From contig JBHIBD010000001.1 in NCBI GenBank assembly GCA_046758865.1, forward strand, positions 7,443 to 71,442: 64,000 nt of DNA. The letters run 5' to 3'. Both the position numbers and the translations under genes were made by a program. Source of the DNA: Candidatus Brocadiales bacterium (GTDB lineage Bacteria; Planctomycetota; Brocadiia; Brocadiales; Bathyanammoxibiaceae). The notes beneath the pieces were generated by a model. That model had not been told where the DNA came from. It saw only the letters and a list, made by a program, of their open reading frames with translations, and ran no database searches. This document shows positions 35,979 to 58,855 of this stretch, one piece after another; positions within the stretch are counted from its first letter, which is position 1, and each line of letters begins with the position of its first letter.

Positions 35979-36542
35979 TTACCCTCTAAGCCTCCAGCTC
36001 TGAAACATCTTCCTGAAGTCGCCAAGGTAGCCCTTAAAATCTTGCTGTTGTGTAACCCCTGTAAAGGAGTAGGCCTTATCTTTGACTACCGTAAGGAGCT
36101 GGATGAACTGGAGGGTATAATCTCCATCCGTGTAGGCATATATCAGCTCCTGCCATTCCGCACCGGCCTGGCTGACCCATCTTTCCAGGAAGAATTTTGT
36201 ATCTGGATACCTTGACCTTATCTGATTTTTTAGCTCCTCTGTGAGGTCTCCCAGGTCCTTTTCTGTATCAGAGACAAGGGCTATAAGGGTGGCCTGGAAC
36301 CCGGAAGGAGGGGTATTTGTGAAGACTACAAGGTCTTCTGCCTCCTGGGGGCTGATTTCCCAGCCCCCGAGGAGGGTAAATCTGAAATACTTACCCCTGT
36401 ACTCCTTTTCCTGTTTTTCTCCCTGTTGGGTCCCAGACAGATTAAATTTGAAGTACTCACTTCTGTATTTCTCTTGGTATTCCTGTGAAAAGGCCTGGAC
36501 AGGAACAAGGAATAAAACAAAGAGGAAGATGAGTTTCTTCAT
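35979..36542 (-). CDS. secreted hypothetical protein (187 aa)
   Basis: Signal peptide MKKLIFLFVLFLVPVQAFS. Internal echo KYRSEYFKFNLSG / EYRGKYFRFTLLGGW. Lies downstream of the 163-aa CarboxypepD_reg-like gene. Confidence 0.6.
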   Translation of the reverse strand: MKKLIFLFVLFLVPVQAFSQEYQEKYRSEYFKFNLSGTQQGEKQEKEYRGKYFRFTLLGGWEISPQEAEDLVVFTNTPPSGFQATLIALVSDTEKDLGDLTEELKNQIRSRYPDTKFFLERWVSQAGAEWQELIYAYTDGDYTLQFIQLLTVVKDKAYSFTGVTQQQDFKGYLGDFRKMFQSWRLRG

Positions 36543-36581
36543 AGCTGTTTTTAAAAGCCGATAGGGATATAGTTTTATGGG

Positions 36582-37073
36582 TTATGGAGATGCGACCCTA
36601 TCCTTGCCGCCGCCTCCGATGGCCCCGGTAGCAGCCGCAGCCCCTAACCCTACACCAGCAGCCGCAAGCACCCCAACTACTACATACACCCATTGACCAG
36701 GATGAGGTGACAAGAAGCCCTTGGTCTTACTCAGCTTTAGGCTCGTCTGCTTGCCTGTGGGGCTTAGCTGTACGTACTCACTGGCCTTATCCAAGCCATG
36801 AGCGGCCTGAATTCTGTAGGTCTTTCCAGCCTCAAGGCCCTTGAACTGGAAGCTCCCGTCTGGCCTAGTAGTTGTAGAGGCCGCCACTACATCAGTAGCT
36901 ACATCCACTGCCTCCACCTTTATTCCCCGCAGGGGCTTACCATCAATGCCCACCACAGTCCCGGTAATCTCTCCAGTGGTCTGGGCAAACAGGCTACTCG
37001 TTTGCCCTGCTACAGGAAACACAGCTGCTAACAGGACCAGACACCACACCAATACCTTTTTTGGTTTGAACAT
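36582..37073 (-). CDS. CarboxypepD_reg-like protein with signal peptide and Gly/Ala-rich C-terminal TM segment (paralog A, 163 aa)
   Basis: GEITGTVVGIDGKPLRGIKVEAVD...RPDGSFQFKGLEAGKTYRIQA fits the carboxypeptidase-regulatory-like fold pattern. C-terminus VYVVVGVLAAAGVGLGAAAATGAIGGGG. SD GGAG upstream. Confidence 0.75.
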   Translation of the reverse strand: MFKPKKVLVWCLVLLAAVFPVAGQTSSLFAQTTGEITGTVVGIDGKPLRGIKVEAVDVATDVVAASTTTRPDGSFQFKGLEAGKTYRIQAAHGLDKASEYVQLSPTGKQTSLKLSKTKGFLSPHPGQWVYVVVGVLAAAGVGLGAAAATGAIGGGGKDRVASP

Positions 37074-37128
37074 TTTGTGATTTCTCCTTTAGTTTGGATT
37101 TCCATTTTTTATGTGTTTATAGCGCCAA

Positions 37129-37193
37129 AGTTTACAGAAAAGAGAAAGAATGTCAAGAAAAAACTTGACATTACTACAAAAAAGGTTTATTTT
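37129..37193. promoter_or_regulatory. back-to-back divergent promoters sharing the palindrome TGTCAAG-A6-CTTGACA (37151..37170)
   Basis: Plus strand: TTGACA 37165..37170, 17 nt, TATTTT 37188..37193, reading toward wza-like 37327. Minus strand: TTGACA (complement of 37151..37156), 16 nt, TAAACT (complement of 37129..37134), reading toward 37073. Confidence 0.5.
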
Positions 37194-37237
37194 CGGGAAG
37201 ATATTGTAGTTCTATTTTTGTGCTCTTATAACACCAA

Positions 37238-37302
37238 AGTTTACATGAAGAAGAAATATTGTCAAGAAAAAACTTGATTCTACCAGAGAGAAGGTTTATT
37301 TT
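37238..37302. promoter_or_regulatory. second, slightly degenerate copy of the divergent promoter cassette
   Basis: TGTCAAG-A6-CTTGATT at 37260..37279. Plus strand: TTGATT, 17 nt, TATTTT (37297..37302). Minus strand: TTGACA, 16 nt, TAAACT (37238..37243). Confidence 0.4.
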
Positions 37303-45761: not shown

Positions 45762-47297
45762 ATGAAGGCATACAGAAAAGATGGGAAGATAAGAAGTCTC
45801 GATGAGTTAGAGAAAATAGTGCAAAGACTGAAAAAAAAGAATAAGACCGTAGTCCATTGTCATGGTGTTTTTGATCTTATGCATCCTGGTCACATTAAAC
45901 ACCTAGAGGCGGCGAAAAGAGAAGGTGATGTCCTGATTGTAACATTGACACAAGATAAATATGTTGGCAAAGGTCCGGGGAGGCCCGTATTTAACCAGCA
46001 TCTCAGGGCAGAATCTATAGTTGCACTCGAATGCGCTGATTATGTGGCAATAAATGAGTGGCAGACGGCGGTAGAAACTATCAAAAAGATAAAACCCGAT
46101 ATATATGCAAAGGGAAGTGATTACGCAGCCCCAGAGACAGACATAACGGGTGAGATATACCACGAAAAAGAAGCTATAGAGTCTATAGGTGGAAAGATTC
46201 ATTTCACAAATGAGACTACCTTTAGCTCATCACAGCTTTTAAATAAATTCTTTGATGTATATCCTGATGAGTCAAGAAAGTTTCTTCAAGATTTCCGTTC
46301 AAGATTTTCTTCATTCGATGTTATTGATAAATTGAAAGCCGTAAGGGATTTAAAGATACTTGTAATAGGAGATACTATTATTGATGAATACCACTACTGT
46401 GTACCAATGGGTAAGTCTCCTAAGGAGAGCATAATCTCAACAAAATACATCAGTGAAGAAAGATTTGCCGGAGGCGTGTTGGCATGTGCTAATCACATAG
46501 CAGGATTTTGCGATAATGTGCATTTAGTAACTTGTTTAGGAACTATGGATTCGAAAGAGGGCTATATCTTAGACCACTTAAAATCTCACATAGACTCTAA
46601 GTTCTTCTATCGCGATGATGCGTGTACTATTGTAAAGAGGAGATTTGTTGAATCTGCATTTCTAACCAAGATGTTTGAAATATCTTCCTTGGAAGACCGT
46701 CCGCTCCCTCAAGCCGTAAATCTTGCAGTTTGTGACTACCTGCACGCTGTAGCTGCGAATTATGACCTTGTTATTGTAGCCGATTTTGGGCACGGTTTTA
46801 TTGACCGGAATATTGTAAACGTTTTATGTGAGAAGGCGAGGTTTCTTGCCGTTAATACTCAGACTAACAGCGCAAACATCGGTTTTAACCTGGTAACTAA
46901 ATATCCGAGGGCAGATTTTGTGTGTATTGATGAGCCAGAAATAAGGCATGCCGCACATAGTAAGCATGGAGAAATTAAAGATATAATCCAAGAGATTGCA
47001 AAGAAACTAAAGAGCAAAAAGGTAGCTGTAACAAGGGGACACTTAGGATCGATTACTTACGATGAGACGGGCAGTTTTTATGAGATACCCGTTTTCTCAG
47101 GAAAAGTTGTTGACAGAGTAGGTGCAGGTGATGCCTTTCTTTCCCTAACATCACCGATAGTCACTTTGGGTTGCTCGATGGAACTGGCTGGTTTTGTAGG
47201 AAATGCTGTGGGGGCAATAGCGGTCGGTATTGTATGCAACAGGTCATCCGTTGAGCCTATTAGTCTATATAAATTTATTACCACCCTTCTTAAATGA
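45762..47297 (+). CDS. bifunctional nucleotidyltransferase (CTP_transf_like, N-terminal) / PfkB sugar kinase (C-terminal); HldE-like with reversed domain order
   Basis: N-terminus HCHGVFDLMHPGHIKHLEAAKREGDVLIV (HxGH). C-terminus DRVGAGDAFLS (PfkB signature 2). 511 aa. Confidence 0.8.
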   Translation: MKAYRKDGKIRSLDELEKIVQRLKKKNKTVVHCHGVFDLMHPGHIKHLEAAKREGDVLIVTLTQDKYVGKGPGRPVFNQHLRAESIVALECADYVAINEWQTAVETIKKIKPDIYAKGSDYAAPETDITGEIYHEKEAIESIGGKIHFTNETTFSSSQLLNKFFDVYPDESRKFLQDFRSRFSSFDVIDKLKAVRDLKILVIGDTIIDEYHYCVPMGKSPKESIISTKYISEERFAGGVLACANHIAGFCDNVHLVTCLGTMDSKEGYILDHLKSHIDSKFFYRDDACTIVKRRFVESAFLTKMFEISSLEDRPLPQAVNLAVCDYLHAVAANYDLVIVADFGHGFIDRNIVNVLCEKARFLAVNTQTNSANIGFNLVTKYPRADFVCIDEPEIRHAAHSKHGEIKDIIQEIAKKLKSKKVAVTRGHLGSITYDETGSFYEIPVFSGKVVDRVGAGDAFLSLTSPIVTLGCSMELAGFVGNAVGAIAVGIVCNRSSVEPISLYKFITTLLK

Positions 47298-47309
47298 AAC
47301 AGAAGCGTT

Positions 47310-47891
47310 ATGCAATTAGACCTTAAAAATTATCTTGACCAGCTTGAAAATACTTTATTAGAAATTCAGGTAACAAATTCTGATAATGCTAATATAGATT
47401 TGATTAATGGCATCGAGGAAGTTACAAAAATAATATCTGCTCAATCGGAGAAAGGCAACAAAGTTATAATGATTGGAAATGGCGGTAGCTCATCAATCGC
47501 AAGCCACATAACAGTCGATTTATGGAAAAACGGAGGAGTGAGGGCGATTACTTTTGGTGACCCAGCATTACTTACCTGTGTGAGTAATGACTTGGGTTAT
47601 GAGTGTGTCTTTGAAAAACCTATAAGGATGTTTGGTGATGCAGGGGATGTTCTTATTGCCATAAGCAGTTCTGGAAGATCAGAGAATATTCTAAATGGGG
47701 TTAGTGCAGCGGAGAAAAGATTGTGTAAAGTTATTACGATGTCTGGATTTGAACCAGATAATCCACTTCGCTCAGCTGGAGAGATAAACTTTTATGTCCC
47801 GTCCAATTCCTATGGATATGTGGAGATAGCCCATTTAGTTCTTTGTCATTATGTTGTGGATATAATAATAAACAAGAATTCACATGGATAG
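47310..47891 (+). CDS. gmhA: SIS-domain sedoheptulose-7-phosphate isomerase (GmhA-like)
   Basis: MIGNGGSSSIASHITVDL and LIAISSSGRSENIL. 193 aa. Confidence 0.8.
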   Translation: MQLDLKNYLDQLENTLLEIQVTNSDNANIDLINGIEEVTKIISAQSEKGNKVIMIGNGGSSSIASHITVDLWKNGGVRAITFGDPALLTCVSNDLGYECVFEKPIRMFGDAGDVLIAISSSGRSENILNGVSAAEKRLCKVITMSGFEPDNPLRSAGEINFYVPSNSYGYVEIAHLVLCHYVVDIIINKNSHG

Positions 47892-48951
47892 ATTCAGAAT
47901 AGATAGTCATAAGCTAATTTACCATGTGGGCAGGGTAAATGATTGGCTTGCAGGAATACCTGTCTATCCAATCTATACTGAGATAGCGACTTCAGGTGCA
48001 TGTAACCACCGATGTGCTTACTGTGCGCTTGACTATATGGGGTATCAGCAAAGGTTCCTGGACAAAAAGGTATTGATGGACAGGCTCTCTGAAATGGCGT
48101 CTCTTGGATTAAAGAGTGTTATGTATGCGGGGGAGGGTGAACCGCTTCTGCACAAGGATATTGTTGAGATAGTCAATCACACAAAGAAGGTCGGTATTGA
48201 TGTAGCCGTAACCACGAATGGGGTGCTGTTAAAGAAAGGTTTTGTTGACTCTGCGCTCAGTAATATTGCATGGATAAAGGTGAGCATAAATGGAGCAACA
48301 AAAGGAACCTATGCAAAGATTCACAGAGCAAGCCCTGATGATTTTGACAGGGTGATGGAAAACATGTCTTATGCAGCAAGGTTGAGAGATGAGAAGGGTT
48401 ATGACTGCGTTCTTGGTGTGCAGCTAATCCTCTTGCCAGAAAACTGCCCCGAGGTGACCCTTCTAGCACAAAAGGCCAAGGATATAGGCATGGATTATTT
48501 AGTTGTGAAGCCTTATTCACAGCATCCACTGAGTAAAACAACAAAGTATAAGGATATAAAATACAGTAAGTATCTTCATTTAGCAGACAGCCTAAATGGT
48601 CTTAACGATAGAAAGTTCAGCGTAATATTCCGCATTAACACAATGAAAAAGTGGGATGAAGGTATACGCAATTATAGACACTGCTATGCCCTTCCCTTCT
48701 GGTCATACATCGATGCTGGGGGCAATGTGTGGGGGTGTAGCGCTTATCTCTCCGACGAGCGTTTTCGATATGGCAACATTTATGAGAATACATTCAAGGA
48801 GATTTGGGAGGGCAAAAAAAGGATTCAGTCAGTTCGTTGGGCAGATGGGGAACTTGATACAAATCAGTGTAGGGTAAACTGCAGGATGGACGAAGTAAAC
48901 AAATATTTATGGGAATTAAAGCACCCCCCTGAACACGTAAATTTTATCTAG
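47884..48951 (+). CDS. radical SAM enzyme (non-B12), paralog 1 (355 aa)
   Basis: SGACNHRCAYC (CX3CX2C), YAGEGEPLL, a Cys-rich C-terminal part, and the tail WELKHPPEHVNFI. Confidence 0.85.
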   Translation: MDRFRIDSHKLIYHVGRVNDWLAGIPVYPIYTEIATSGACNHRCAYCALDYMGYQQRFLDKKVLMDRLSEMASLGLKSVMYAGEGEPLLHKDIVEIVNHTKKVGIDVAVTTNGVLLKKGFVDSALSNIAWIKVSINGATKGTYAKIHRASPDDFDRVMENMSYAARLRDEKGYDCVLGVQLILLPENCPEVTLLAQKAKDIGMDYLVVKPYSQHPLSKTTKYKDIKYSKYLHLADSLNGLNDRKFSVIFRINTMKKWDEGIRNYRHCYALPFWSYIDAGGNVWGCSAYLSDERFRYGNIYENTFKEIWEGKKRIQSVRWADGELDTNQCRVNCRMDEVNKYLWELKHPPEHVNFI

Positions 48952-48973
48952 GAATTGGGGCCGTAAATAAATA

Positions 48974-49417
48974 TTGGAAGCAAAGTACAGGGTAGCACTC
49001 ATTATTTTGTACGATCCCGGAAGAAGATTATTGCTTCAACACAGAACCAAAGATGCCAAAATACTACCCGATTATTGGGCGTTCTTTGGTGGTAGTGTTA
49101 GACAAGGAGAGACGCCACATGAAGCTGTTCGCAGAGAGGCACTTGAAGAGTTGAATTACAAACTCAAGGCACCTCAACTTTTTATTGAACAGGATTTCAA
49201 AATTGGCAGCACGGAAGGTTACATGTACGTATATATCGAAGCTTTTGATAGTGATAAGTCGTTGCTTAACTTACAGGAAGGACAAGGGTGGGGTTGGTAT
49301 AAAGCATCCGAGGTTGATGGCCTGAGAATGATCGACCATGATAGAAAGCTGGTAAAGTCAATAACACGCTATTTGGAAAATAGTACAAATACAAATTCTG
49401 AAAGGGCCGAGAGTTAA
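48974..49417 (+). CDS. NUDIX hydrolase
   Basis: Nudix box GGSVRQGETPHEAVRREALEELN. Confidence 0.85.
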   Translation: MEAKYRVALIILYDPGRRLLLQHRTKDAKILPDYWAFFGGSVRQGETPHEAVRREALEELNYKLKAPQLFIEQDFKIGSTEGYMYVYIEAFDSDKSLLNLQEGQGWGWYKASEVDGLRMIDHDRKLVKSITRYLENSTNTNSERAES

Positions 49418-49434
49418 AGATAAAGATGTAAAAG

Positions 49435-50265
49435 TTGCAAATGAGAATGAAAACAAAAGCAGAAGAAAAACTAAGTCTAATTGCAAAAGAGGTTAGAAAA
49501 TTAATTATAGAAGTTGCACACAGGTCAAAAAGCGCTCACGTAGGAACTTCATTGTCATGTGTTGATTTGATGGTTTCTCTTTATTTTCATGAACTACATA
49601 TCGATGAGAAGAGTTGGCACAATAGAGATATATTTGTGTTGAGCAAGGCACATGCGGCAATGGCCTTGTATGCCGTTTTAACGATTAAGGGTTTCATAGA
49701 CAAAGAAACTTTCTTAAATTATATGCAAGACGACGGAACATTACCAGCACATCTTGACCGGTTCACGGCTAAAGGTATAGAAGTTTCTGCCGGCTCGCTA
49801 GGGCATGGCTTCAATACGGCTTTAGGCATGGCTTATGGCTTTAAGACTAAAGGCGACAAGAGAAATGTTTTTGTATTGATAGGCGATGGAGAATCCGAAG
49901 AAGGGTCAATATGGGAGGGTGCTTTATTTGCACCGAAACTCGGTATCAACAATTTTACCGCAATTTTAGATTACAATAATTTGCAGGGATATGGCCGGCC
50001 CAATGAAATCTGTCACTACGAGCCTGTTGAGGACAAATGGAAGGCATTTGGATGGGAAGTTTGCAGGATAAACGGGCATAATTTCTCTGAAATTATTCAG
50101 GCTCTTAAAAGACCCAATAATGGAAGGCCCAAAATAATTATTGCTGATACCACAAAGGGAAAGGGCGTGTCCTTTATGGAGGATGAATTGAAGTGGCACT
50201 ATTTTATTGTTACTAAAGATTATAAGGAAAAGGCAATGCGGGACTTTAAGTCAGGGCAAGAATGA
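49435..50265 (+). CDS. transketolase, N-terminal (ThDP-binding) subunit
   Basis: AHVGTSLSCVDLM and GDGESEEGSIWEGALFA (GDG...EG ThDP motif). TTG start. Confidence 0.85.
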   Translation: MQMRMKTKAEEKLSLIAKEVRKLIIEVAHRSKSAHVGTSLSCVDLMVSLYFHELHIDEKSWHNRDIFVLSKAHAAMALYAVLTIKGFIDKETFLNYMQDDGTLPAHLDRFTAKGIEVSAGSLGHGFNTALGMAYGFKTKGDKRNVFVLIGDGESEEGSIWEGALFAPKLGINNFTAILDYNNLQGYGRPNEICHYEPVEDKWKAFGWEVCRINGHNFSEIIQALKRPNNGRPKIIIADTTKGKGVSFMEDELKWHYFIVTKDYKEKAMRDFKSGQE

Positions 50266-51173
50266 GGAATACCGTTATCAATAGAATTGCAAAATATGCA
50301 GAAGAGGATAAGAGCGTTTTTTTAGTAAGTGGCGATGCCGGCTTCGGCGTTCTTGATAAATATAAGAAATGTTTTCCGGACAAATATCTAAATCTAGGTG
50401 TTGCTGAGCAGAACATGATAAGCTTTGCTGCCGGACTGGGATTGGCTGGATATAACGTGTTTGTTTATAACATCATACCTTTTGTTCTTTATAGGTGTTA
50501 CGAGCAGGTGAGAAATGACATCTGTTATCAACGCTTACCAATAACATTAATAGGAATAGGAAGTGGTGTCACTTATGCACCACAGGGTATTACCCATTAC
50601 GGGGTAGAAGATATTGCAATAGCAAGGACTTTACCAAATTTAGTGATCCTTTCTCCATCCGACCCAGTGGAGGCAGAAAAGTGTGCAGAATTCGCATTTA
50701 AAAGCGATAGACCCGTTTATATAAGGGTAGCAAAAAGAGGAGAGCCTGCAATCCATAAAAATGGCATTGAAAGTATAACAGAACCCATAGTTATAAAAGA
50801 AGGTGAAGAAGTAGCCCTATTATTTCACGGCTCTATAAGCTATGAAGTAATTACGGCGCTAGGGAACTTGCAAAGCCTCCCCATGCTTATTTCCATTCCA
50901 ATGATCCAACCCTTGAATTTCACTTCACTCTTAAAAAAGCTGAAGAACGTTCACACCCTGATAACTGTTGAAGAACATTTCGTTGAGGGTGGCCTCGGCA
51001 GTGTTATATCAGAGTGGCTCACAAAGGAGAGACTGCCCTTCAGATTAAAAAGACTTGGAATAAAAAATGAATTTATTCATGCAATTCAAAGCAATAGCGG
51101 AATGAGGAGCATCTACGGCATCTCCAGTGCCAGTATTGGAAAAGCTGTTACGGAGGCCTTGGAGAGTGGCTAA
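50262..51173 (+). CDS. transketolase, C-terminal (pyrimidine-binding) subunit
   Basis: LNLGVAEQNMISFAAGLGLAG. ATGA overlap with the N-terminal subunit gene. Confidence 0.85.
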   Translation: MRNTVINRIAKYAEEDKSVFLVSGDAGFGVLDKYKKCFPDKYLNLGVAEQNMISFAAGLGLAGYNVFVYNIIPFVLYRCYEQVRNDICYQRLPITLIGIGSGVTYAPQGITHYGVEDIAIARTLPNLVILSPSDPVEAEKCAEFAFKSDRPVYIRVAKRGEPAIHKNGIESITEPIVIKEGEEVALLFHGSISYEVITALGNLQSLPMLISIPMIQPLNFTSLLKKLKNVHTLITVEEHFVEGGLGSVISEWLTKERLPFRLKRLGIKNEFIHAIQSNSGMRSIYGISSASIGKAVTEALESG

Positions 51174-52032
51174 AAAGGTTTTACTACTCGGCTCTACCGG
51201 CAAGATGGGGATGGCATTAAGAGAGGTCTTTGAGGACGGCTATACCGTTATCGGAAAAAACACCAGGGACTTTGACGCCCTCCGGCCGGAAAGCATTCGG
51301 AATCTGGTAGAGGAAAATAGACCGGACATGGTCATAAATACCGTCGCATTCTTAGGTATAGACCCGTGTGAAAGAGAGCCCGAAAAGGCCCTTAGGCTGA
51401 ATACACTTTATCCGAGAATGCTGGCAGAACTCTCAAACGAGAAAAGGTTTTTACTTATAAACTTTAGTACGGATGCCGTCTTTGACGATGGGGCGAGGGG
51501 GTTTTATACCGAAACCGACCGCCCGAGACCATTAAATTTGTATGGGTTTACAAAACACGGAGGGGATTGTTTTGTACAAACGATTTCAAAAAATTATTAT
51601 GTATTCAGACTCTCTGTCATATTTGGAAAGACTACCAAGAACACCCAGTTTGTAGAGAAGATGTTGCAAAAGGTGTGTGAGGGCCAGAAAGTCTTAAGGG
51701 TTGCAGACGACATTGTTTCTTCCCCCAGCTACAGTGTTGACATTGCCAAAGAAGTAAGGCGACTTACAGAGGCTTCATCAGAGTTCGGGCTTTACCATAT
51801 AGCGAATGAAGGGATGGCCACTCTATACGATTTAATGAATGAAATCGTCAAAAACCTCAATCTTGATGTCGAGGTGGAAAGGGCTTCCTACAAGGACTTC
51901 CCTTATTTAGGGAGAAAGAATACATTTACACCAATCAAATCAGAAAAAGTAGCCCCCCTGCGGCCATGGAGGGAGGCTGTTAAAGAGTATTGTGACGAAA
52001 AATTGAGAGGAGAAGTAACCCTTGCCAGATAA
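51127..52032 (+). CDS. RmlD-like NAD(P)H-dependent 4-keto-sugar reductase (RmlD_sub_bind family)
   Basis: KKVLLLGSTGKMG and YGFTKHGGD (YxxxK). The real start is probably the GTG (VAKKVLLLG) or ATG (MGMAL) 35-75 nt inside the track ORF. Confidence 0.75.
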   Translation: MPVLEKLLRRPWRVAKKVLLLGSTGKMGMALREVFEDGYTVIGKNTRDFDALRPESIRNLVEENRPDMVINTVAFLGIDPCEREPEKALRLNTLYPRMLAELSNEKRFLLINFSTDAVFDDGARGFYTETDRPRPLNLYGFTKHGGDCFVQTISKNYYVFRLSVIFGKTTKNTQFVEKMLQKVCEGQKVLRVADDIVSSPSYSVDIAKEVRRLTEASSEFGLYHIANEGMATLYDLMNEIVKNLNLDVEVERASYKDFPYLGRKNTFTPIKSEKVAPLRPWREAVKEYCDEKLRGEVTLAR

Positions 52033-53107
52033 ATACATAATGAATGGTCACAAGCTCTATTGGCACCTGGATAGAGTAATGGACTGGTTAAATGGGGAAA
52101 GGGTGGCGCCCATACATATTGATGTTGGTCTAAGTAAAGGATGCAATATCAGGTGCCAGTATTGCTTTGGTGTTATACAAGGCAACTTTTATAGAAAAGG
52201 TTCAGAGGTTTACTTCCCCCGCAAACCTTTATTGAGATATTTGAAAGAGGCAGGAAAAATAGGGGTGCGGTCTATGGCATTCGTTGGGGAGGCGGAACCA
52301 CTCTTGAATCCCTATGTCTATGAGGCAATCGCAGAAGGCAAGAGGGCTGGTGTTGATATTGCACTGGGGACGAACGGGATATTATTTGACACCGGAAAGA
52401 GGGGAGAAGAGGCGTTAGAACTTCTAAGCTGGATAAGGTTTAATATCAGTGCGGCTTCGGATGAGGCCTACAGAAGAATTCATGCCAGTAAGGAGTTCTC
52501 AACGGTTGTTGAGAAGATAAAGTTTTGCGTGGATTTGAAACGTCGAAAGGGCCTGAATGCCACAATCGGCCTCCAAATGGTTCTAACTCCAGCTAATGTT
52601 GACCAGGCCGTCCCCCTGGCCAAACTGGGAAGACAGCTGGGGGTAGACTACTGTGTTATAAAACAGTGCAGTGATACGGTTGAGAATGCTCTTGGGATAT
52701 ACGGTAGACTTCAGGAATACGACAATTTTGCAGACGTTCTCCAAGAGGCTGAAGGTATAAGCTCGAATGGTTACAACGTAATAGTAAAATGGGGAAAGAT
52801 TACAAACAAAGGAGAGAGGAGTTACGACCAGTGTATCGGTGTCCCGCTTCTGTTATATTCAAGCGGCGATGGAAGGTTGTACCCGTGTGGAGCATTTTTC
52901 GACTTCAAAGAGGAAGAATATAGAATGGGGGACCTTGTAAAACAATCTTTTAAAGAAATCTTTGAGAGTGACAGATACTGGGAGGTTGTGGAAAAGGTCA
53001 AGAGAATAGATGTTCACAAAGAGTGCTATTCAAACTGCAGGACGCATTGTATAAACAAATTTCTCTGGCAATTGACTCATCCACCGGAACACGTCAATTT
53101 TGTTTAG
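52022..53107 (+). CDS. radical SAM enzyme (non-B12), paralog 2 (361 aa)
   Basis: SKGCNIRCQYC (CX3CX2C), FVGEAEPLL, and the tail WQLTHPPEHVNFV. The N-terminus GHKLYWHLDRVMDWLNG parallels SHKLIYHVGRVNDWLAG of paralog 1. Confidence 0.85.
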   Translation: MPDKYIMNGHKLYWHLDRVMDWLNGERVAPIHIDVGLSKGCNIRCQYCFGVIQGNFYRKGSEVYFPRKPLLRYLKEAGKIGVRSMAFVGEAEPLLNPYVYEAIAEGKRAGVDIALGTNGILFDTGKRGEEALELLSWIRFNISAASDEAYRRIHASKEFSTVVEKIKFCVDLKRRKGLNATIGLQMVLTPANVDQAVPLAKLGRQLGVDYCVIKQCSDTVENALGIYGRLQEYDNFADVLQEAEGISSNGYNVIVKWGKITNKGERSYDQCIGVPLLLYSSGDGRLYPCGAFFDFKEEEYRMGDLVKQSFKEIFESDRYWEVVEKVKRIDVHKECYSNCRTHCINKFLWQLTHPPEHVNFV

Positions 53108-53112
53108 GCAAA

Positions 53113-53895
53113 ATGCAACCAACGGATAATAACAAAATCGATCTAACGGTTGTAATGCCAGCACTTAACGAGGGGGAAAATATCCTGGCTGCTGTTAACA
53201 ATACCTTGAGGGCCTTTGAAGATTTTAGCATTAATGGCGAGATTATTGTGATTAATGATGGGAGTACCGATGGGACAGAGGATGTAGTAAAGGATATAAT
53301 AAAAAAAGATAACCGTGTCAGGTTAATCAGGCATGACACCCCTAAAGGCATAGGCACATCGTTTTGGAATGGGGTCGATGCCGCGGATGGAGATATAGTG
53401 ACCTGGATCCCCGGCGATAATGAAAACGACCCGTGGGAAATTTTCCGTTATTACAAGTTACTCGAACAGGTAGATGTTGTTGTCCCCTTTGTCTATAATA
53501 GAGAAGTACGGCCACTCTTCAGGAATGCACTCTCATTTGTTTACCGCTTCATTGTCAACACCACCTTCTTGGTAAATTTTAATTATACAAACGGAACAGT
53601 CCTCTACCGTAGATCCATCTTAAAAGAACTGGATTATAGGAGTGAGGGCTTCTTCTTTCAAACCGACATTTTGATAAGAACCGTAAAAAAGGGCTATCTC
53701 TTTGCTGAAGTCCCCTATAGGCTTGGCTTGAGAAAAGAAGGGGTGTCTAATGCGGTATCCTTTCCTTCCCTGTTGCAAGTTATAAAGGGCTACCTGCGCC
53801 TAATGAAAGATCAGTATTTTGACAAAGACAGAGAGAGTAAACCGCATTTTTCGGATGATTCCTTAACAACAACCAGACGGCAAATTAAGCAATGA
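53113..53895 (+). CDS. GT2 polyprenol-phosphate sugar synthase-like transferase (Dpm1/GtrB/ArnC-like), start moved to the internal ATG
   Basis: LTVVMPALNEGENI, VINDGSTDGT and IPGDNENDP. The ATG at 53113 lies just after the stop of the upstream gene. Confidence 0.8.
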   Translation: MQPTDNNKIDLTVVMPALNEGENILAAVNNTLRAFEDFSINGEIIVINDGSTDGTEDVVKDIIKKDNRVRLIRHDTPKGIGTSFWNGVDAADGDIVTWIPGDNENDPWEIFRYYKLLEQVDVVVPFVYNREVRPLFRNALSFVYRFIVNTTFLVNFNYTNGTVLYRRSILKELDYRSEGFFFQTDILIRTVKKGYLFAEVPYRLGLRKEGVSNAVSFPSLLQVIKGYLRLMKDQYFDKDRESKPHFSDDSLTTTRRQIKQ

Positions 53896-53923: not shown

Positions 53924-54451
53924 TTGGTCATGAGGGTTCTATTTTGGGGCTCAGCCATTTTTTGCGCATCTTTCTTTTTACATCTGGTTATCTGGAAAGT
54001 ACGTCTGCCCAAAAGACAGTCAAAGGCTCTGTTCCAAATCTTTTTTGGAGTCTTAGTTGCAAGTATTTCTATTCTATGGGGCACATCGGCATTTCTTGCG
54101 AACCGTGAGTCTTCTGCTCCGGGAAGTCATTTAGAATACCTGCACATTTGCCTGTTTTTTACTTCACTTACACTAGCTTACATACTTACTTACGTTGCCG
54201 TTGAGGTGGACAGCCCTTCCCTCGTAATGGTAATGAGCATTGCCATGGCCGGTTCAGAAGGGTTAGATGAGAAACGATTCAACCAGAGAATGACTGACGA
54301 CCTGTTGATAAAACCAAGAATAAGAGACCTCGTTCATGATGAGCTAATCTATATGGAAGGAAACAAATATAAGCTAACTTCAAAAGGATTTCTGGTTGTA
54401 CGCATATTTAGCTTATATCGTAGATTGCTAAATGCAGAAATTGGTGGTTGA
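53924..54451 (+). CDS. small membrane protein (about 3-4 TM) with winged-helix-like C-terminal domain, paralog 1
   Basis: Hydrophobic N-terminal half, then C-terminal LIKPRIRDLVHDELIYMEGNKYKLTSKGFLVV. Confidence 0.6.
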   Translation: MVMRVLFWGSAIFCASFFLHLVIWKVRLPKRQSKALFQIFFGVLVASISILWGTSAFLANRESSAPGSHLEYLHICLFFTSLTLAYILTYVAVEVDSPSLVMVMSIAMAGSEGLDEKRFNQRMTDDLLIKPRIRDLVHDELIYMEGNKYKLTSKGFLVVRIFSLYRRLLNAEIGG

Positions 54452-54986
54452 GTTTCTTATGCCTTATAGCCTTTTGCATGTTCTAAACCCAATTTTAGGT
54501 CTAATTATTAATGTACTGATGCAGGTTGTCAGTTTCAGGTATATTCCCAGGTTGGGATTATTAAAGTCGATAATTTTAGGTTTTGCTACGGGTCTTACTG
54601 TCGTTTTGACACTTGAACTGTGTGTTTTCTCCACGCAGTCAACATCTACAGATGATTTTGTGCCTATTTTTATTGTCAACTTTATAATGTATTCTTCACT
54701 GGGATATTGTTATTTTCATTTCGCAAATCTTGGGGAGACAGCCCGCCGCATCAGGATATTGAGAGAATTATATGATTCAAAAGAGGGATTATCAATGCAG
54801 GAAATTCTGCAAAGATATAACGCCAGAAAAATTGTTGAAGTAAGAATAAATAGGCTTATTAACAACGGACAAATTATATACAAAAGTGGCAGATATTATA
54901 TTGGAAACCCCGTCATGCTGATAATAGCGAAGATTGTAGTAATGATGAAGCTAATCATTCTTGGGAAAAGAAGCGAATTTGATTGA
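54432..54986 (+). CDS. small membrane protein (about 3 TM) with winged-helix-like C-terminal domain, paralog 2
   Basis: RRIRILRELYDSKEGLSMQEILQRYNARKIVEVRINRLINNGQIIYKSGRYYIG. An alternative start is MPYSLL at 54459. Confidence 0.6.
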   Translation: MQKLVVEFLMPYSLLHVLNPILGLIINVLMQVVSFRYIPRLGLLKSIILGFATGLTVVLTLELCVFSTQSTSTDDFVPIFIVNFIMYSSLGYCYFHFANLGETARRIRILRELYDSKEGLSMQEILQRYNARKIVEVRINRLINNGQIIYKSGRYYIGNPVMLIIAKIVVMMKLIILGKRSEFD

Positions 54987-55017: not shown

Positions 55018-55281
55018 GTGTACTATAAATCGCTCCTTGACGATGGTATGTTTAAGAAGGATTACTGGGCAGAGTTTATCAAGAAGCCCACAAAAGATTT
55101 TGAGTTACCTCTCCCGAGAAGCAAGGAGTTACAACTGGTAGATTCTTATCATCGTGTCTTCTTCTTGAACCCCACGTTCATATTACGAGAGCTACGTGGG
55201 TCTATTCTTACATGGAAAATGTTTTTTATCGCTTTTTTCACTGAAAGAACTATTGATAAAATCTTTGCTTCGAGGCCTTAG
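55018..55281 (+). pseudogene. C-terminal remnant of a B12-binding radical SAM gene
   Basis: GMFKKDYWAEFIKKPTKDFELPLP...SYHRVFFLNPTFILRELRG matches the usual tail of this family (compare TTFYLNPIFYRKEVLRRIR in 17459..18916). There is no catalytic core, and the ORF begins right after the upstream gene's stop. Confidence 0.6.
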
Positions 55282-55298: not shown

Positions 55299-56813
55299 AT
55301 GTATGATTTACTCCTAATCTCTCCACGAAACACACAGCTCGGACGTTTTAAGAGGTTTGTGCCGAGAAGTGTGCCTATTGGAATAGGCATCTTGGCCGGG
55401 TTTCTTAGAGGGAAGGGTATTTCCGCCAAGATACTTGACCAGGAGTTGACAGATATAAGTACGGAAACATTGCGGAGCTGCCTAGCGCAATGCAAAAAAC
55501 CTTGGATCGTTGGCATTAGCGTCATGACAGCGAATGTTGCCAGTGGATATCACATAGCTAAATTGGTGAAGTCTGTTAGTAAAGAAGCAGTTGTCGTATT
55601 CGGGGGCATTCACGCCACAGTAATGCCAGATGAGATTCTTCTGTCGGGTTGCGTTGACTTTGTTGTTCAAGGGGAGGCGGAATATACACTTTTGGAACTA
55701 ATCCGTCAGATTAAGGGTGGTAGAATTCAACGAGATACGCTTGAAAACATCAGTTACGTGGAAGACGGACAAATCATTTACACAAAGCCCTCAACAAAGA
55801 CGGTAGATGTAAATGAGGTTCCCATGTTTCCTTATGACATGTTTGACCCATCAAAATATAACCTTGGTTTCATCCTGACATCCAGGGGATGCCCGTTTGA
55901 TTGTATCTTTTGCAGTCAGAAGGCCATTACGAAGAGGGTTTATAGGTACGTTTCGTCAGAAAGAGTAGTCGAAGAGCTTGATTACATAATAAATGAGATG
56001 CACCAACCAAACATTACCTTTTTTGATGATTATTTTACCGGGAATAAAAAAAGGGTATTTGAGCTGTGCAACATGATTCAAGAAAGAGGGCTGCACAAAA
56101 AGGCCTCTTTTGGAGTCCAAACCCGTGGCGATAGCATTGACAAGGAACTTATGATAGCTATGAAAGCGGCTAACTTTGACAGTCTGATGTTCGGTGTCGA
56201 AACTGCTTCGGAAGATTTGATGAAGTTAATTAATAAGAATGAAACTGTCCAGGAAAATATCGATGCAATAAGATTAGCCAAGGAGATTGGTTTTACAGTA
56301 GAAGCTACATTCATCTACGGGTTTCCGACCGAGACCTTCAAGGACAGACTTGCAGCCCTCTCTCTTGCAGTGAGTATTGGGATAGACAGGGCCAGGTTTA
56401 ATAATGCCACACCGTACCCTGGCACACAAATGTATAAAATGGTTAGGGACAAGATTAATTTCGCACCTCAGTGGGTGAACTTTAGCTCTGCCGGTGCAGT
56501 TACAGCAGGTATTAGGAAGAAATACCCTCTTCCATATATTCCGGAAGGCTGCACAGAGAATGAACTTGAAGGAAGTGTTCTTTTGGCAAATCTTTTGTTT
56601 TATCTAAATCTCGTCAACTTAAAAAAACTTTTCAACCCCGGACAGAGAGGCAGTGGTAAATGGTTTGAAGTATCTAAGAATGACCTTCTATCACCAAGCG
56701 CGCTATTTGGACTATTGATACTGGGGGGAACAGTTTTATTAAGAACTCTTTATTATCTACTTTCGTGCGGCAATTGCCGCAGATTTTTCCTCAAGGGTCT
56801 CAGGGTAACGTAA
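55299..56813 (+). CDS. B12-binding-domain radical SAM enzyme
   Basis: TSRGCPFDCIFCSQ (CX3CX2C) after a B12-binding-like N-domain (LLLISPRN...PIGIGILAGFL). Confidence 0.85.
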   Translation: MYDLLLISPRNTQLGRFKRFVPRSVPIGIGILAGFLRGKGISAKILDQELTDISTETLRSCLAQCKKPWIVGISVMTANVASGYHIAKLVKSVSKEAVVVFGGIHATVMPDEILLSGCVDFVVQGEAEYTLLELIRQIKGGRIQRDTLENISYVEDGQIIYTKPSTKTVDVNEVPMFPYDMFDPSKYNLGFILTSRGCPFDCIFCSQKAITKRVYRYVSSERVVEELDYIINEMHQPNITFFDDYFTGNKKRVFELCNMIQERGLHKKASFGVQTRGDSIDKELMIAMKAANFDSLMFGVETASEDLMKLINKNETVQENIDAIRLAKEIGFTVEATFIYGFPTETFKDRLAALSLAVSIGIDRARFNNATPYPGTQMYKMVRDKINFAPQWVNFSSAGAVTAGIRKKYPLPYIPEGCTENELEGSVLLANLLFYLNLVNLKKLFNPGQRGSGKWFEVSKNDLLSPSALFGLLILGGTVLLRTLYYLLSCGNCRRFFLKGLRVT

Positions 56814-56846: not shown

Positions 56847-58244
56847 TTGACTTCTAACATGGACGCAAGTGGGTTCGGTAAGAGTAGCCTTATCCTGACT
56901 GCTGTGCTGGTGGCGGCATTTACTCTAAGAGTACTTGTTGGACTTAGTCTTTACTCGGGTAATATGCCATTGTTCAAAGACTTTCAGGGCAGTTTTTGGG
57001 ATAGCGGGTATACCGCTTACGGTGTGCTAGCCATAAACGTTGTCGAAGGCAGGGGATTTCGTTTGCAGCACGGAGGTAAAAATGGCGTTTATTTCATGGG
57101 AGAGACGAGGGCTGAACGGATGCCCTTATATCCCTTATTCCTGTCAGTGTTATATGTTGGATTCGGTAAGAGCACCACGGCTCCAGTACTCGCTCAATCC
57201 ATTATAGGAACATTGACCGTTTTAATTACCTTTTTGATAGGACGGCAGCTTTTCAATGAGAAGGTAGGAATAGCAGCCTCTTCGTTGACAGCAATTTATC
57301 CCTATTATGTTGTCCATGACACAGCCCTCCAAGAAACGAGCCTTCTCACGTTGCTGACAGGTGTCAGCGTTCTATGCCTTATAAAATGTATCCGGTACAA
57401 TTCATTGCGCTACTATGTCCTAGCTGGCGTTTCCCTGGGAATTGGATCCCTCTGCAAAAATATTCTACTAGGTTTTGTACCTTTTGCAGTCTTTTGGATT
57501 CTCTTAAATCCCATAAAAGACAAGACTAGAAAGATTTCAATCCTGTTACTCAGTTTTGCCATAGTAATGTCTCCATGGGTAATTCGCAACACACTTGTTC
57601 TCGGTAAACCTATTATTGGTACCACCCAGACCGGCGGTGTTTTGTGGCAGGGGAACAATCCCTTCGTTTTATCTTACTACCCGTGGAAAAGTATCGATAA
57701 CAGTACAGGGAAGGCATTGGAGGCCCTCACAACAAAAGATAAAAAAGAGTTGCTTGGCCTGGATGAGTTAGGAAAACAGCGCTGGTACAGGCAAAAGGCG
57801 GTTAAGTTTATGAGAGAAAACCCAGTGCTTACCATAAAGGCTGCGTTTATCAAGGCCTTTGCCGGCATGGGTTGGATTCTTTCACCACAAAAAGATAGGC
57901 CAATTTTAAACTTTATCTACACAGCATCTTATCTCCCTTTGCTTATATTTGGAATTGCTGGTGCCATCCTTACCAGGAAGACCTGGAGAGAGATTTCCAT
58001 CATCTATTTTTTATTTGTTCCTTTTCTGCTGATAACGATGCTCTTCTTTGCTCATACCTCAAGCCGGGTGTATTTAGACATATACCTTATGGTTTTAGCT
58101 GCTTTCACGTTGGTGAAGGTTGGAGAATGGCTGTGGCTTAACTTGACTCAGACACCGTTACGGGCAAGTACGAAAACCGCCCCCCCAGCTCAAAACACGA
58201 ATTTTACTACAAAAAGAATTTTATCGCAAGAGAATAATTTATGA
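56847..58244 (+). CDS. GT-C fold polytopic glycosyltransferase (ArnT/PMT_2-like)
   Basis: 465 aa with more than 10 TM segments, TTG start and a loop-rich N-terminal third as in family-39/83 enzymes. Assignment is by architecture and context. Confidence 0.6.
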   Translation: MTSNMDASGFGKSSLILTAVLVAAFTLRVLVGLSLYSGNMPLFKDFQGSFWDSGYTAYGVLAINVVEGRGFRLQHGGKNGVYFMGETRAERMPLYPLFLSVLYVGFGKSTTAPVLAQSIIGTLTVLITFLIGRQLFNEKVGIAASSLTAIYPYYVVHDTALQETSLLTLLTGVSVLCLIKCIRYNSLRYYVLAGVSLGIGSLCKNILLGFVPFAVFWILLNPIKDKTRKISILLLSFAIVMSPWVIRNTLVLGKPIIGTTQTGGVLWQGNNPFVLSYYPWKSIDNSTGKALEALTTKDKKELLGLDELGKQRWYRQKAVKFMRENPVLTIKAAFIKAFAGMGWILSPQKDRPILNFIYTASYLPLLIFGIAGAILTRKTWREISIIYFLFVPFLLITMLFFAHTSSRVYLDIYLMVLAAFTLVKVGEWLWLNLTQTPLRASTKTAPPAQNTNFTTKRILSQENNL

Positions 58245-58363: not shown

Positions 58364-58855
58364 GTGCTGATAAAGTCAAGGCTTGTGACCTTCCTTCCTG
58401 TGTTCCTCTCTTTGGTGTTTCCCATTGCAGGCCATATGGGGGCAGTGCTGGCCCAGACACTAGGGGACATTTCTGGAACCGTGGTTGGTGTTGACGGCAG
58501 GCCTCTAATGGGGGTGGAAGCGAGACTTGTGGACATTAATACGGGAAACGCGGTAGCCTCCATAAAAACTGCCAAAGATGGTTCGTTTAGTTTTAGTGGG
58601 CTAAAGGCAGGAAATACATACAAGGTACAGGCCTTGCACGGTAAGGATGTGGATAGTGCCCTAGTAACCGTTTCATCTGGCCCCTCAAAACCTGTTGCCT
58701 TGAAGCTTAGCCAGACCAAAGGTTTCATGGCCTTGGCCGGTGCTGGTGGGGGCTTTCCCGTTTGGGGCTATGTCCTAATAGGTTTGGCCGTAGCTGGAGC
58801 AGCAGCAGGTGCCGCCGCCGCTTCTGGTCTGGTGGCGGGGGGGGCCTTGGGCTAG
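58364..58855 (+). CDS. CarboxypepD_reg-like protein with signal peptide and Gly/Ala-rich C-terminal TM segment (paralog B, 163 aa)
   Basis: GDISGTVVGVDGRPLMGVEARLVD...AKDGSFSFSGLKAGNTYKVQA. C-terminus VWGYVLIGLAVAGAAAGAAAASGLVAGGALG. Collinear with 36582..37073. Confidence 0.75.
   Translation: MLIKSRLVTFLPVFLSLVFPIAGHMGAVLAQTLGDISGTVVGVDGRPLMGVEARLVDINTGNAVASIKTAKDGSFSFSGLKAGNTYKVQALHGKDVDSALVTVSSGPSKPVALKLSQTKGFMALAGAGGGFPVWGYVLIGLAVAGAAAGAAAASGLVAGGALG

Follow-up and report, generated by a model that had tools for sequence, protein, structure and literature searches.

The window considered here comprises 64,000 nucleotides (nt) from a Candidatus Brocadiales bacterium (assembly GCA_046758865.1, contig JBHIBD010000001.1, positions 7,443 to 71,442 of the forward strand) and contains, at 53924-54986 on the + strand, two adjacent genes that are called A and B in this article. 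Their products are small proteins in which three predicted transmembrane (TM) helices lead into a predicted winged-helix domain, and profile searches indicate that the two constitute a large two-member family that is absent from the copies of Pfam and NCBIfam searched. Both open reading frames (ORFs) are present in the ORF list of the window (53924-54451 and 54432-54986), as an earlier reading made from the letters alone (the sequence-only reading) had reported, and their likely true starts give products of 173 and 175 amino acids (aa).

For A, ATG 53930 is the likely start, and the resulting product matches at 100% identity a hypothetical protein encoded in the metagenome-assembled genome (MAG) of a Candidatus Brocadiales (anammox) bacterium. 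The longest ORF for B begins at ATG 54432, but the likely start is ATG 54459, which yields a product that is 100% identical to P0001 and fits the length of most B homologues (175-177 aa). Only 7 nt separate the stop codon of A from the start codon of B, suggesting that translation of the two genes is coupled. The features of the pair, as predicted from AlphaFold2 (AF2) models and sequence properties, are:

53930..54451, +, ORF A, small membrane protein of 173 aa (alternative TTG start at 53924)
53933..54205, +, TM helices of A, residues 2-24, 30-55 and 67-92 (DSSP on AF2 model, hydropathy)
54212..54376, +, winged-helix domain of A, helices 95-110, 114-120 and 124-136, strands 140-143 and 146-149 (AF2/DSSP, Foldseek)
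54380..54427, +, C-terminal basic amphipathic helix of A, residues 151-166 (AF2, hydropathy, charge)
54459..54986, +, ORF B, 175 aa
54462..54722, +, TM helices of B, residues 2-28, 34-59 and 64-88 (AF2/DSSP, family alignment)
54723..54902, +, winged-helix domain of B, helices (64-)106, 113-119 and 123-135, strands 139-142 and 145-148 (AF2/DSSP, Foldseek)
54909..54983, +, C-terminal helix of B, residues 151-168, with lysines spaced 7 apart, plus the tail G-K-R-S-E-F-D, which is conserved in the B family

Predicted fold, kinship and topology of A and B

The AF2 models, which were built with family alignments as input, have mean pLDDT values of 78.4 for A and 85.1 for B, with values mostly between 63 and 88 in the winged-helix region of each. 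As assigned by DSSP, both models share one order of elements, three TM helices followed by helix-(short strand)-helix-helix-strand-strand and a final helix, and this predicted order is the canonical one for a winged helix in both proteins. In the B model, TM3 and the first helix of the winged-helix domain form one continuous helix (residues 64-106), and in the A model a two-residue break lies between them. When the models were compared with the Protein Data Bank (PDB) by Foldseek, nearly all of the top 50 matches listed for each were winged-helix-containing proteins, chiefly regulators of the MarR, ArsR and DtxR types; the best local matches had a root-mean-square deviation of ~2-2.5 Å over 70-80 residues and modest E-values (0.017-0.4). 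The matches of A include MexR, MepR, MotA, CggR, Sso10a and YodB, those of B include ArsR/SmtB, CzrA, HlyU, DtxR, MarR and the dimerisation domains of O-methyltransferases, and HucR and IclR were also listed for the A/B models; the membrane part was covered by none of the top 50 matches listed. The sequence-only reading had proposed about three TM helices and a winged-helix domain in each protein and looked to structure prediction to decide the point; the AF2 models and Foldseek bear this out, with a winged-helix fold predicted in both proteins.

Sequence searches are quieter. Neither protein has a Pfam or NCBIfam match above the curated cut-offs, the best sub-threshold helix-turn-helix (HTH) scores in Pfam being those of HTH_45 (E 0.02-0.046), MarR (E 0.13) and HTH_24 (E 0.28), and the A and B family profiles found no match at E≤10 among all PDB chain sequences. 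Weak matches to a Dimerisation2-like domain were seen in 9 of 42 B members (Pfam, best E 0.02). It was also considered whether the domains could be recognition elements for ribosomally synthesised and post-translationally modified peptides (RiPP recognition elements, RREs; PqqD-like) that partner the SPASM enzymes encoded nearby. This candidate was rejected, as an RRE has a three-stranded sheet first and three helices after it, whereas A and B have the helices first and the hairpin after; PqqD- or RRE-containing proteins were not found among the top 50 listed Foldseek matches of either model.

A comparison of the two proteins with each other suggests common ancestry. By BLASTP, A and B share 12 of 40 aligned residues (E 0.002). 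Profiles built from a 42-sequence alignment for each family aligned by hhalign along 88 columns that span TM3 through the C-terminal helix, with an E-value of 8.6e-5 and a probability of 60%. The score of 35.1 exceeds those of 100 column shuffles (13.8±2.8, maximum 22.4) and of the reversed alignment (15.5), and the C-terminal domains alone also score above their shuffles (27.7 versus 11.6±2.7), whereas the TM regions alone showed no significant likeness when judged against shuffles. Because the profile score exceeds both kinds of control, A and B are considered distant paralogues, at least from TM3 onward, on the strength of profile comparison, and the alignment of their C-terminal halves that the sequence-only reading had reported is weak yet above chance. 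A 170-aa membrane protein encoded upstream of a Scalindua B12 enzyme was tried as a third paralogue and rejected (hhalign probability <1%).

Hydropathy analysis finds three hydrophobic helices in each protein, plus a very hydrophobic C-terminal helix in B. The first loop is strongly positive in both families (mean net charge +3.3 in A and +2.5 in B) and the second is neutral, which predicts that the N-terminus of each protein lies outside and that the winged-helix domain and C-terminus lie in the cytoplasm. The winged-helix domains themselves differ in mean net charge, which is -2.2 in the A family (range -7 to +1) and +3.2 in the B family. Segment 151-173 of A carries a mean net charge of +4.1, and its C-terminal helix probably lies flat along the cytoplasmic face of the membrane; that of B could be either an in-plane helix or a fourth TM helix.

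Conservation within the families is asymmetric across the membrane. The cytoplasmic halves of the TM helices average 3.46 bits in A and 3.19 bits in B, compared to 2.55 and 2.34 bits for the periplasmic halves (p 2e-5 and 3e-4, respectively), and the periplasmic loop, residues 56-66 in A, is the least conserved part at ~1.5 bits. Conservation peaks at the junction of TM3 and the winged-helix domain, with the recognition helix and wing below this peak. In A the junction motif, just upstream of the winged-helix domain, is Y84..T87-Y88-S89-A90..E92..D94-S95-P96. In B it is G-Y-C-Y-F-H-F-x-N-L-G-E-T-A-R-R-x-R, where G-Y-C-Y-F-H-F, with an invariant Cys, forms the cytoplasmic end of TM3 and the invariant N-L-G-E-T-A-R-R-x-R is the most conserved stretch of the protein; conserved polar residues also lie within TM1 (N18, Q22) and TM3 (N74, Y78) of B. 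Through this Cys, A or B could conceivably be substrates of the SPASM maturases encoded nearby. Because conservation is asymmetric and peaks at the TM3 junction, these alignments place a functional site at the cytoplasmic membrane interface.

The family is widespread. In a set of 5.8 billion proteins, 179 clusters are homologous to A and 466 to B, and none of these carries a Pfam domain; the B profile retrieved 1,738 representatives (50% identity) at E≤1e-3 and 1,130 at E≤1e-10. A locus survey that used one genome per GTDB species yielded 64 loci, each from a different species, in about ten phyla, including Omnitrophota, Nitrospirota, Planctomycetota (with Scalindua), Desulfobacterota, Elusimicrobiota, Nitrospinota, Latescibacterota, Lentisphaeria and others. 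Most of the hosts are uncultured members of the Omnitrophota, Nitrospirota, Planctomycetota (anammox bacteria), Desulfobacterota and Elusimicrobiota. Both genes are present in 62 of the loci, and in 61 of these 62 B is the next gene after A on the same strand, with a gap of 3-93 nt. Thus, the two proteins are conserved elsewhere and conserved together, in keeping with the pairing that the sequence-only reading relied on and for which it had suggested a survey of co-occurrence. The pair and its radical S-adenosylmethionine (radical SAM) neighbours were also seen on contigs binned as a Woesearchaeota MAG (L012) and a Levybacteria MAG of the candidate phyla radiation (CPR; L007), occurrences that could reflect horizontal transfer or mis-binning. 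Literature searches under winged helix, polyprenyl and radical SAM, under S-layer glycosylation in anammox bacteria, and under gene clusters of Omnitrophota and Nitrospirota returned no description of the A/B family.

The cassette that surrounds A and B

In the window, A and B are flanked on the + strand by genes for sugar activation, radical SAM chemistry and glycosyl transfer:

45762..52032, +, upstream sugar-nucleotide genes: HldE-like kinase/nucleotidyltransferase, SIS (GmhA-like), radical SAM/SPASM, NUDIX, a split transketolase-like pair and an RmlD-like reductase; the same families recur in related loci
52022..53107, +, radical SAM/SPASM enzyme, 361 aa, soluble
53113..53895, +, family 2 glycosyltransferase (GT2), ~260 aa from ATG 53113 (Pfam Glycos_transf_2, E 2e-24)
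55299..56813, +, B12-binding radical SAM enzyme, 504 aa, with a C-terminal hydrophobic anchor at residues 462-490
56847..58244, +, membrane glycosyltransferase of the GT-C fold (PMT_2), 465 aa, the presumed periplasmic user of a lipid-linked sugar

A and B thus sit between a GT2 and a GT-C gene, in a three-part module like those of the Gtr and Arn systems; this assignment draws on Pfam matches and PDB relatives and agrees with the Gtr-like module proposed by the sequence-only reading. The closest PDB relatives of the GT2 are ArnC, the Pyrococcus furiosus dolichol-phosphate mannose synthase (DPMS) and GtrB, all of which are polyprenyl-phosphate glycosyltransferases of 322-374 aa, and residues 7-230 of the GT2 align to residues 24-249 of 374 in the P. 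furiosus enzyme. ArnC, DPMS and GtrB carry C-terminal TM helices and interface helices, whereas hydropathy analysis of the window GT2 found no hydrophobic or TM segment. By homology, this GT2 is a candidate polyprenyl-phosphate sugar synthase and the proposed client of A and B. It is 58-69% identical across phyla, which makes it better conserved than A or B, and its gene immediately precedes A in the window and is upstream of A in most loci. A GT2 of at least 55% identity was found within 10 kb of the pair in 23 of 30 loci with full flanks, and in at least 20 of 23 loci of an ORF-based subset once tblastn matches missed by ORF calling are added.

The typical cassette begins with DUF2079 (a family that we take to be GT-C-related), followed by a GT9-like gene, a radical SAM/SPASM gene (355 aa), genes for the alpha and beta subunits of a thiamine diphosphate (ThDP)-dependent E1 enzyme or a split transketolase, and the GT2 (~257 aa). 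It continues with a second radical SAM/SPASM gene (367 aa), in some cases a xylose-isomerase-like TIM barrel, A and B, and it ends with an optional radical SAM gene of the 289-aa or the ~500-aa B12 type and at least one large GT-C-type membrane protein (YfhO, PMT/TPR or of unknown type). Radical SAM genes are the most constant neighbours: 33 of 37 loci have one within 2.5 kb of the pair, and 30 of 30 have one within 10 kb. The SPASM gene is immediately upstream of A in most related loci, both SPASM enzymes of the window are soluble, and a B12 radical SAM gene adjoins the pair in 15 of 37 loci. Of 23 related loci, 21 encode large polytopic proteins of a GT-C-like kind (YfhO, PMT/TPR, DUF2079), and HldE-like and GmhA-like heptose-activation genes are often found upstream of the cassette, as they are in the window.

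Other features of the cassette provide hints about its product and history. In the window (47884-53107, +) and in loci L006-L069, the TM-less GT2 is always accompanied by two radical SAM/SPASM enzymes and a ThDP-dependent E1 or transketolase-like pair, a set of genes that points to a strongly constrained heptose-derived, possibly chain-extended, sugar. The HldE-like protein of the window (45762-47294, +) has its cytidylyltransferase-like domain first and its PfkB kinase domain second, the reverse of the order in Escherichia coli HldE, and 510-aa proteins of this type are also encoded upstream of the cassette in other phyla. An 87-aa ORF (55018-55281, +), located in the 312 nt that separate B from the B12 radical SAM gene, matches residues ~385-449 of the 477-478-aa B12 radical SAM proteins flanking the pair in L030 (55% identity, E 1e-18) and L018 (50% identity, E 2e-14), and it is apparently what is left of a second B12 radical SAM gene, most of which has been deleted. 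A gene for an LPG_synthase_TM protein (the flippase domain of MprF) comes directly after B in Scalindua and a Latescibacterota genome (L001, 11191-12174; L016, 10582-11568; L037, 4683-5654); an MprF-type gene in this position was rejected as a general feature, being present in only 2 of 64 loci. A scan of the operon for promoters and terminators performed no better than on shuffled sequence.

Further from the pair, a 781-aa protein (25022-27364, -) fuses an N-terminal GT2 to a PMT_2 (GT-C) membrane domain, and it thereby joins in one polypeptide the lipid-sugar synthase and user that are split around A and B. Two 163-aa CarboxypepD_reg paralogues (36585-37073, -, and 58364-58852, +; 46% identity, E 9e-37) bracket the + strand polysaccharide/heptose cluster; both are hydrophobic at the N-terminus, a further hydrophobic segment lies at the C-terminus of at least the downstream one, and they could be secreted acceptor proteins or bookends of the cluster. 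Near ~36000-37300, the GC skew changes sign and gene orientation flips from - to +, which marks divergent operons: the - strand carries a Wzx/glycosyltransferase cluster, and the + strand carries the heptose cassette together with Wza, Wzc and Wzy.

Proposed role of the pair and its alternatives

We tentatively favour, as possible rather than probable, the reading that A and B form an obligate heterodimer that serves a polyprenyl-phosphate sugar pathway as its non-catalytic membrane subunit, anchoring or activating the GT2 and docking the radical SAM enzymes. An obligate heterodimer is suggested by the fixed gene pair, the paralogy of A and B and the complementary charges of their winged-helix domains. 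An adaptor role is favoured because the GT2 is without the TM helices of its solved relatives, because conservation lies on the cytoplasmic membrane face, and because the pair is tightly linked to GT2 and radical SAM genes.

In the proposed complex, each protein would cross the membrane three times, with TM3 passing straight into a winged helix that lies on the cytoplasmic membrane surface and with a membrane-associated helix at its end. Polyprenyl phosphate, or a polyprenyl-phosphate sugar, would be held by its phosphate head group in a site formed by the TM3/winged-helix junctions and by the conserved part of the six-helix bundle that lies in the cytoplasmic leaflet. The oppositely charged winged-helix domains of A and B would pair with each other and form docking surfaces for soluble enzymes, and these, together with the C-terminal helices, would hold the TM-less GT2 and probably also the radical SAM enzymes. 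The first client would be the GT2, which would load a heptose-derived sugar onto the lipid, the radical SAM neighbours would probably be clients too, and the GT-C transferases would use the lipid-linked sugar on the outer face. The analysis itself supports the architecture and predicted fold, the paralogy, the distribution of conservation, the linkage of the genes and the absence of TM helices from the GT2; formation of the heterodimer, docking of enzymes, binding of lipid and absence of DNA binding are all features that we infer.

Several observations weigh against this proposal. Fusions of A or B to a GT2 or to a radical SAM enzyme were not seen among the 150 best of the 1,738 B-family representatives, these 150 all being 101-218 aa long. 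In a few loci (L019 and L029, for example), the pair lies beside a B12 radical SAM gene, and a related TM-less GT2 is not found within 10 kb. The operon holds no recognisable flippase, so A and B could fill that role, and the conserved N18 and Q22 inside TM1 of B would also suit a transport path. Finally, homology to DUF2304/GacJ, a system that is described below, was tested and found no support, as hhalign gave a probability of 4% for A (with a non-colinear alignment) and 0.3% for B against a DUF2304 profile that represents one subgroup (60-87% identical to its first sequence).

Of the three functions that the sequence-only reading had suggested, the adaptor is thus the one that is favoured; an unusual flippase is retained as a rival and a DNA-binding regulator is disfavoured. 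The flippase alternative holds that A and B constitute a new heterodimeric transporter that moves the GT2-made polyprenyl-phosphate sugar from the cytoplasmic to the periplasmic leaflet for use by the GT-C enzymes, as GtrA, ArnE/ArnF or the Wzx-like GacK do in three-part systems of a similar kind. Consistent with this proposal are the position of the genes between those for the GT2 and the GT-C enzyme, the fact that the sole Wzx-like gene is ~30 kb away on the other strand, the polar residues conserved in TM1 and TM3 of B (N74 and Y78 as well as N18 and Q22), and the total of 6 to 8 TM helices in the pair; side-by-side small paralogous membrane proteins also resemble ArnE/ArnF. However, neither GtrA (PF04138) nor SMR/EamA was among the Pfam families that individual members matched at E≤1 (all 19 for B; the top 25 of 42 for A), and the skew of conservation toward the cytoplasmic half, with periplasmic loops the least conserved, gives no hint of a route across the full bilayer. 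In addition, the predicted topology is the same for A and B, it is not evident why a flippase would require two winged-helix domains, and a separate candidate, LPG_synthase_TM, directly follows B in Scalindua and the Latescibacterota genome. We therefore judge a flippase to be unlikely, though less so than any other departure from the membrane-subunit proposal. Membrane-tethered transcription regulators, which would couple the status of the envelope or pathway to expression of the cluster through DNA binding, are far less probable still. The predicted fold does best match the DNA-binding domains of MarR, ArsR, DtxR and IclR, the B domain is basic, and there are weak profile matches to HTH_45, HTH_24 and MarR, but every match to an HTH family is non-significant, and winged helices that mediate protein-protein contact, the dimerisation domains of O-methyltransferases, match about equally well. 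The 0-2 residue break between TM3 and the winged helix places the domain on the membrane surface, with no linker that could reach DNA, the A domain is acidic on average, and conservation is highest at the TM3 junction and lower in the recognition helix and wing. Translationally coupled genes in an enzyme operon, in fixed order over ~10 phyla, would also be unusual for regulators.

A different possibility is that A and B are mainly a docking platform for radical SAM enzymes of the SPASM, B12 and 289-aa types that act on a membrane-embedded lipid or lipid-linked sugar, with the link to the GT2 being secondary. The constancy of radical SAM neighbours fits this proposal, as do the several loci in which a B12 radical SAM gene is beside the pair and the conserved GT2 is not nearby, the C-terminal anchor of the B12 enzyme in the window, which suggests membrane-bound chemistry, and the remnant of a second such gene directly after B. 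Weak matches to HemN_C, a presumably winged-helix-like domain at the C-terminus of the radical SAM enzyme HemN, were seen in 7 of 42 A members, but these are non-significant (best E 0.011). On the other hand, the presence of three different neighbouring families ties the pair to a broad class of enzymes instead of to one partner, and the HldE, GmhA, transketolase-like and RmlD-like genes raise the prospect that the SPASM enzymes act on soluble sugar nucleotides. This alternative is more doubtful than a flippase, while being much more credible than a pair of regulators.

If the membrane-subunit proposal is extended, A and B could be a new membrane hub, in which winged helices lying flat on the membrane recruit the radical SAM enzymes and the TM-less GT2, so that a heptose-derived sugar is built and radically remodelled on polyprenyl phosphate, and the same hub might pass the product across the membrane to the GT-C transferases. 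This broader scheme is speculative and improbable as a whole, and we place it below the flippase and above the radical SAM platform in likelihood. If true, it would represent an anaerobic equivalent of reactions that edit lipid-linked sugars, the formation of decaprenyl-phospho-arabinose among them, and a non-DNA use of the winged-helix fold at the membrane surface.

There is broader interest in these questions because three-part systems of a GT2, a flippase and a GT-C enzyme decorate O-antigens, teichoic acids, lipid A, arabinogalactan and S-layers, and their small membrane parts (GtrA, ArnE/F, GacJ, Rv3632) are the least understood. The A/B pair marks a conserved, radical-SAM-rich cassette for a putative heptose-derived envelope modification. 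Solving its function would name a new family, test the winged helix as a docking module at the membrane surface, and open an uncharted glycolipid pathway in environmentally important anaerobes.

Comparison with known systems

The C-terminal 60-80 residues of A and B resemble MarR, ArsR/SmtB and DtxR proteins in their predicted helix-strand-helix-helix-strand-strand order, but differ from them in being joined without a linker to a polytopic membrane domain and in having no significant sequence match, and DNA binding by these winged helices appears sterically unlikely in the models. A and B can also be compared with the Dimerisation2 domains of O-methyltransferases (DnrK, MpaG', LepI and SibL), which are winged helices used for protein-protein contact and are among the best Foldseek matches of both models; unlike A and B, these domains are soluble and lie N-terminal to a methyltransferase domain. 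With GtrA and ArnE/ArnF, the pair shares its gene position between a GT2 and a GT-C enzyme, and ArnE and ArnF are also a pair of small paralogous membrane proteins. However, GtrA, ArnE and ArnF have four TM helices and no cytoplasmic domain, whereas A and B have three, plus an uncertain fourth in B.

In eukaryotes, the GT2 catalytic subunit of dolichol-phosphate-mannose synthase, DPM1, lacks TM helices and acts on a polyprenyl phosphate; it is tethered and stabilised by two small membrane proteins, DPM2 and DPM3, with the cytoplasmic part of one subunit docking the enzyme, and the split of MsPpm2 and MsPpm1 in mycobacteria is a comparable arrangement. A and B are proposed, by analogy only, to tether a TM-less GT2 acting on polyprenyl phosphate in a similar way. 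DPM2 and DPM3 differ in having two TM helices each, DPM3 docks by a coiled coil, and no sequence relation to A or B was detected.

The nearest bacterial precedent is GacJ, a 113-aa protein with three TM helices that is encoded beside the GT2 GacI; it forms a complex with GacI, is non-catalytic and lowers the Km for undecaprenyl phosphate (Und-P) (bioRxiv 10.1101/180810). The product of GacI is used by the GT-C enzyme GacL, fusions of DUF2304 to GacI exist, and Rv3632 of Mycobacterium tuberculosis stimulates PpgS (bioRxiv 10.1101/180810). GacI/GacJ and PpgS/Rv3632 therefore set a precedent for TM-less or peripheral lipid-sugar GT2 enzymes that need a small membrane partner. Like GacJ and Rv3632, A and B are each small, have three TM helices and are encoded beside a GT2 of the polyprenyl-phosphate type, with a GT-C enzyme in the cluster. 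Unlike GacJ, they are a fixed pair of paralogues, each has an additional winged helix of ~60 residues and a C-terminal helix, and they are linked to radical SAM genes. In a per-member Pfam scan, 7 of 42 A members and no B members matched DUF2304 (PF10066) weakly, with E≥0.009 and scores below the 25.5-bit cut-off; residues 9-108 of the A member P0135 match positions 6-106 of the 106-position DUF2304 profile in a co-linear manner over its full length (E 0.21). The hhalign comparison cited above used 40 real PF10066 proteins, for whose retrieval four made-up consensus-like sequences served as a hook only. The likeness of A and B to GacJ is therefore one of position, size and likely role, an analogy instead of demonstrable ancestry. 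Thus, the logic of a pathway that combines a GT2, a small membrane component and a GT-C enzyme is known, and what is new in the A/B system are its components and their architecture, in which a polytopic membrane domain runs into a winged helix without a linker.

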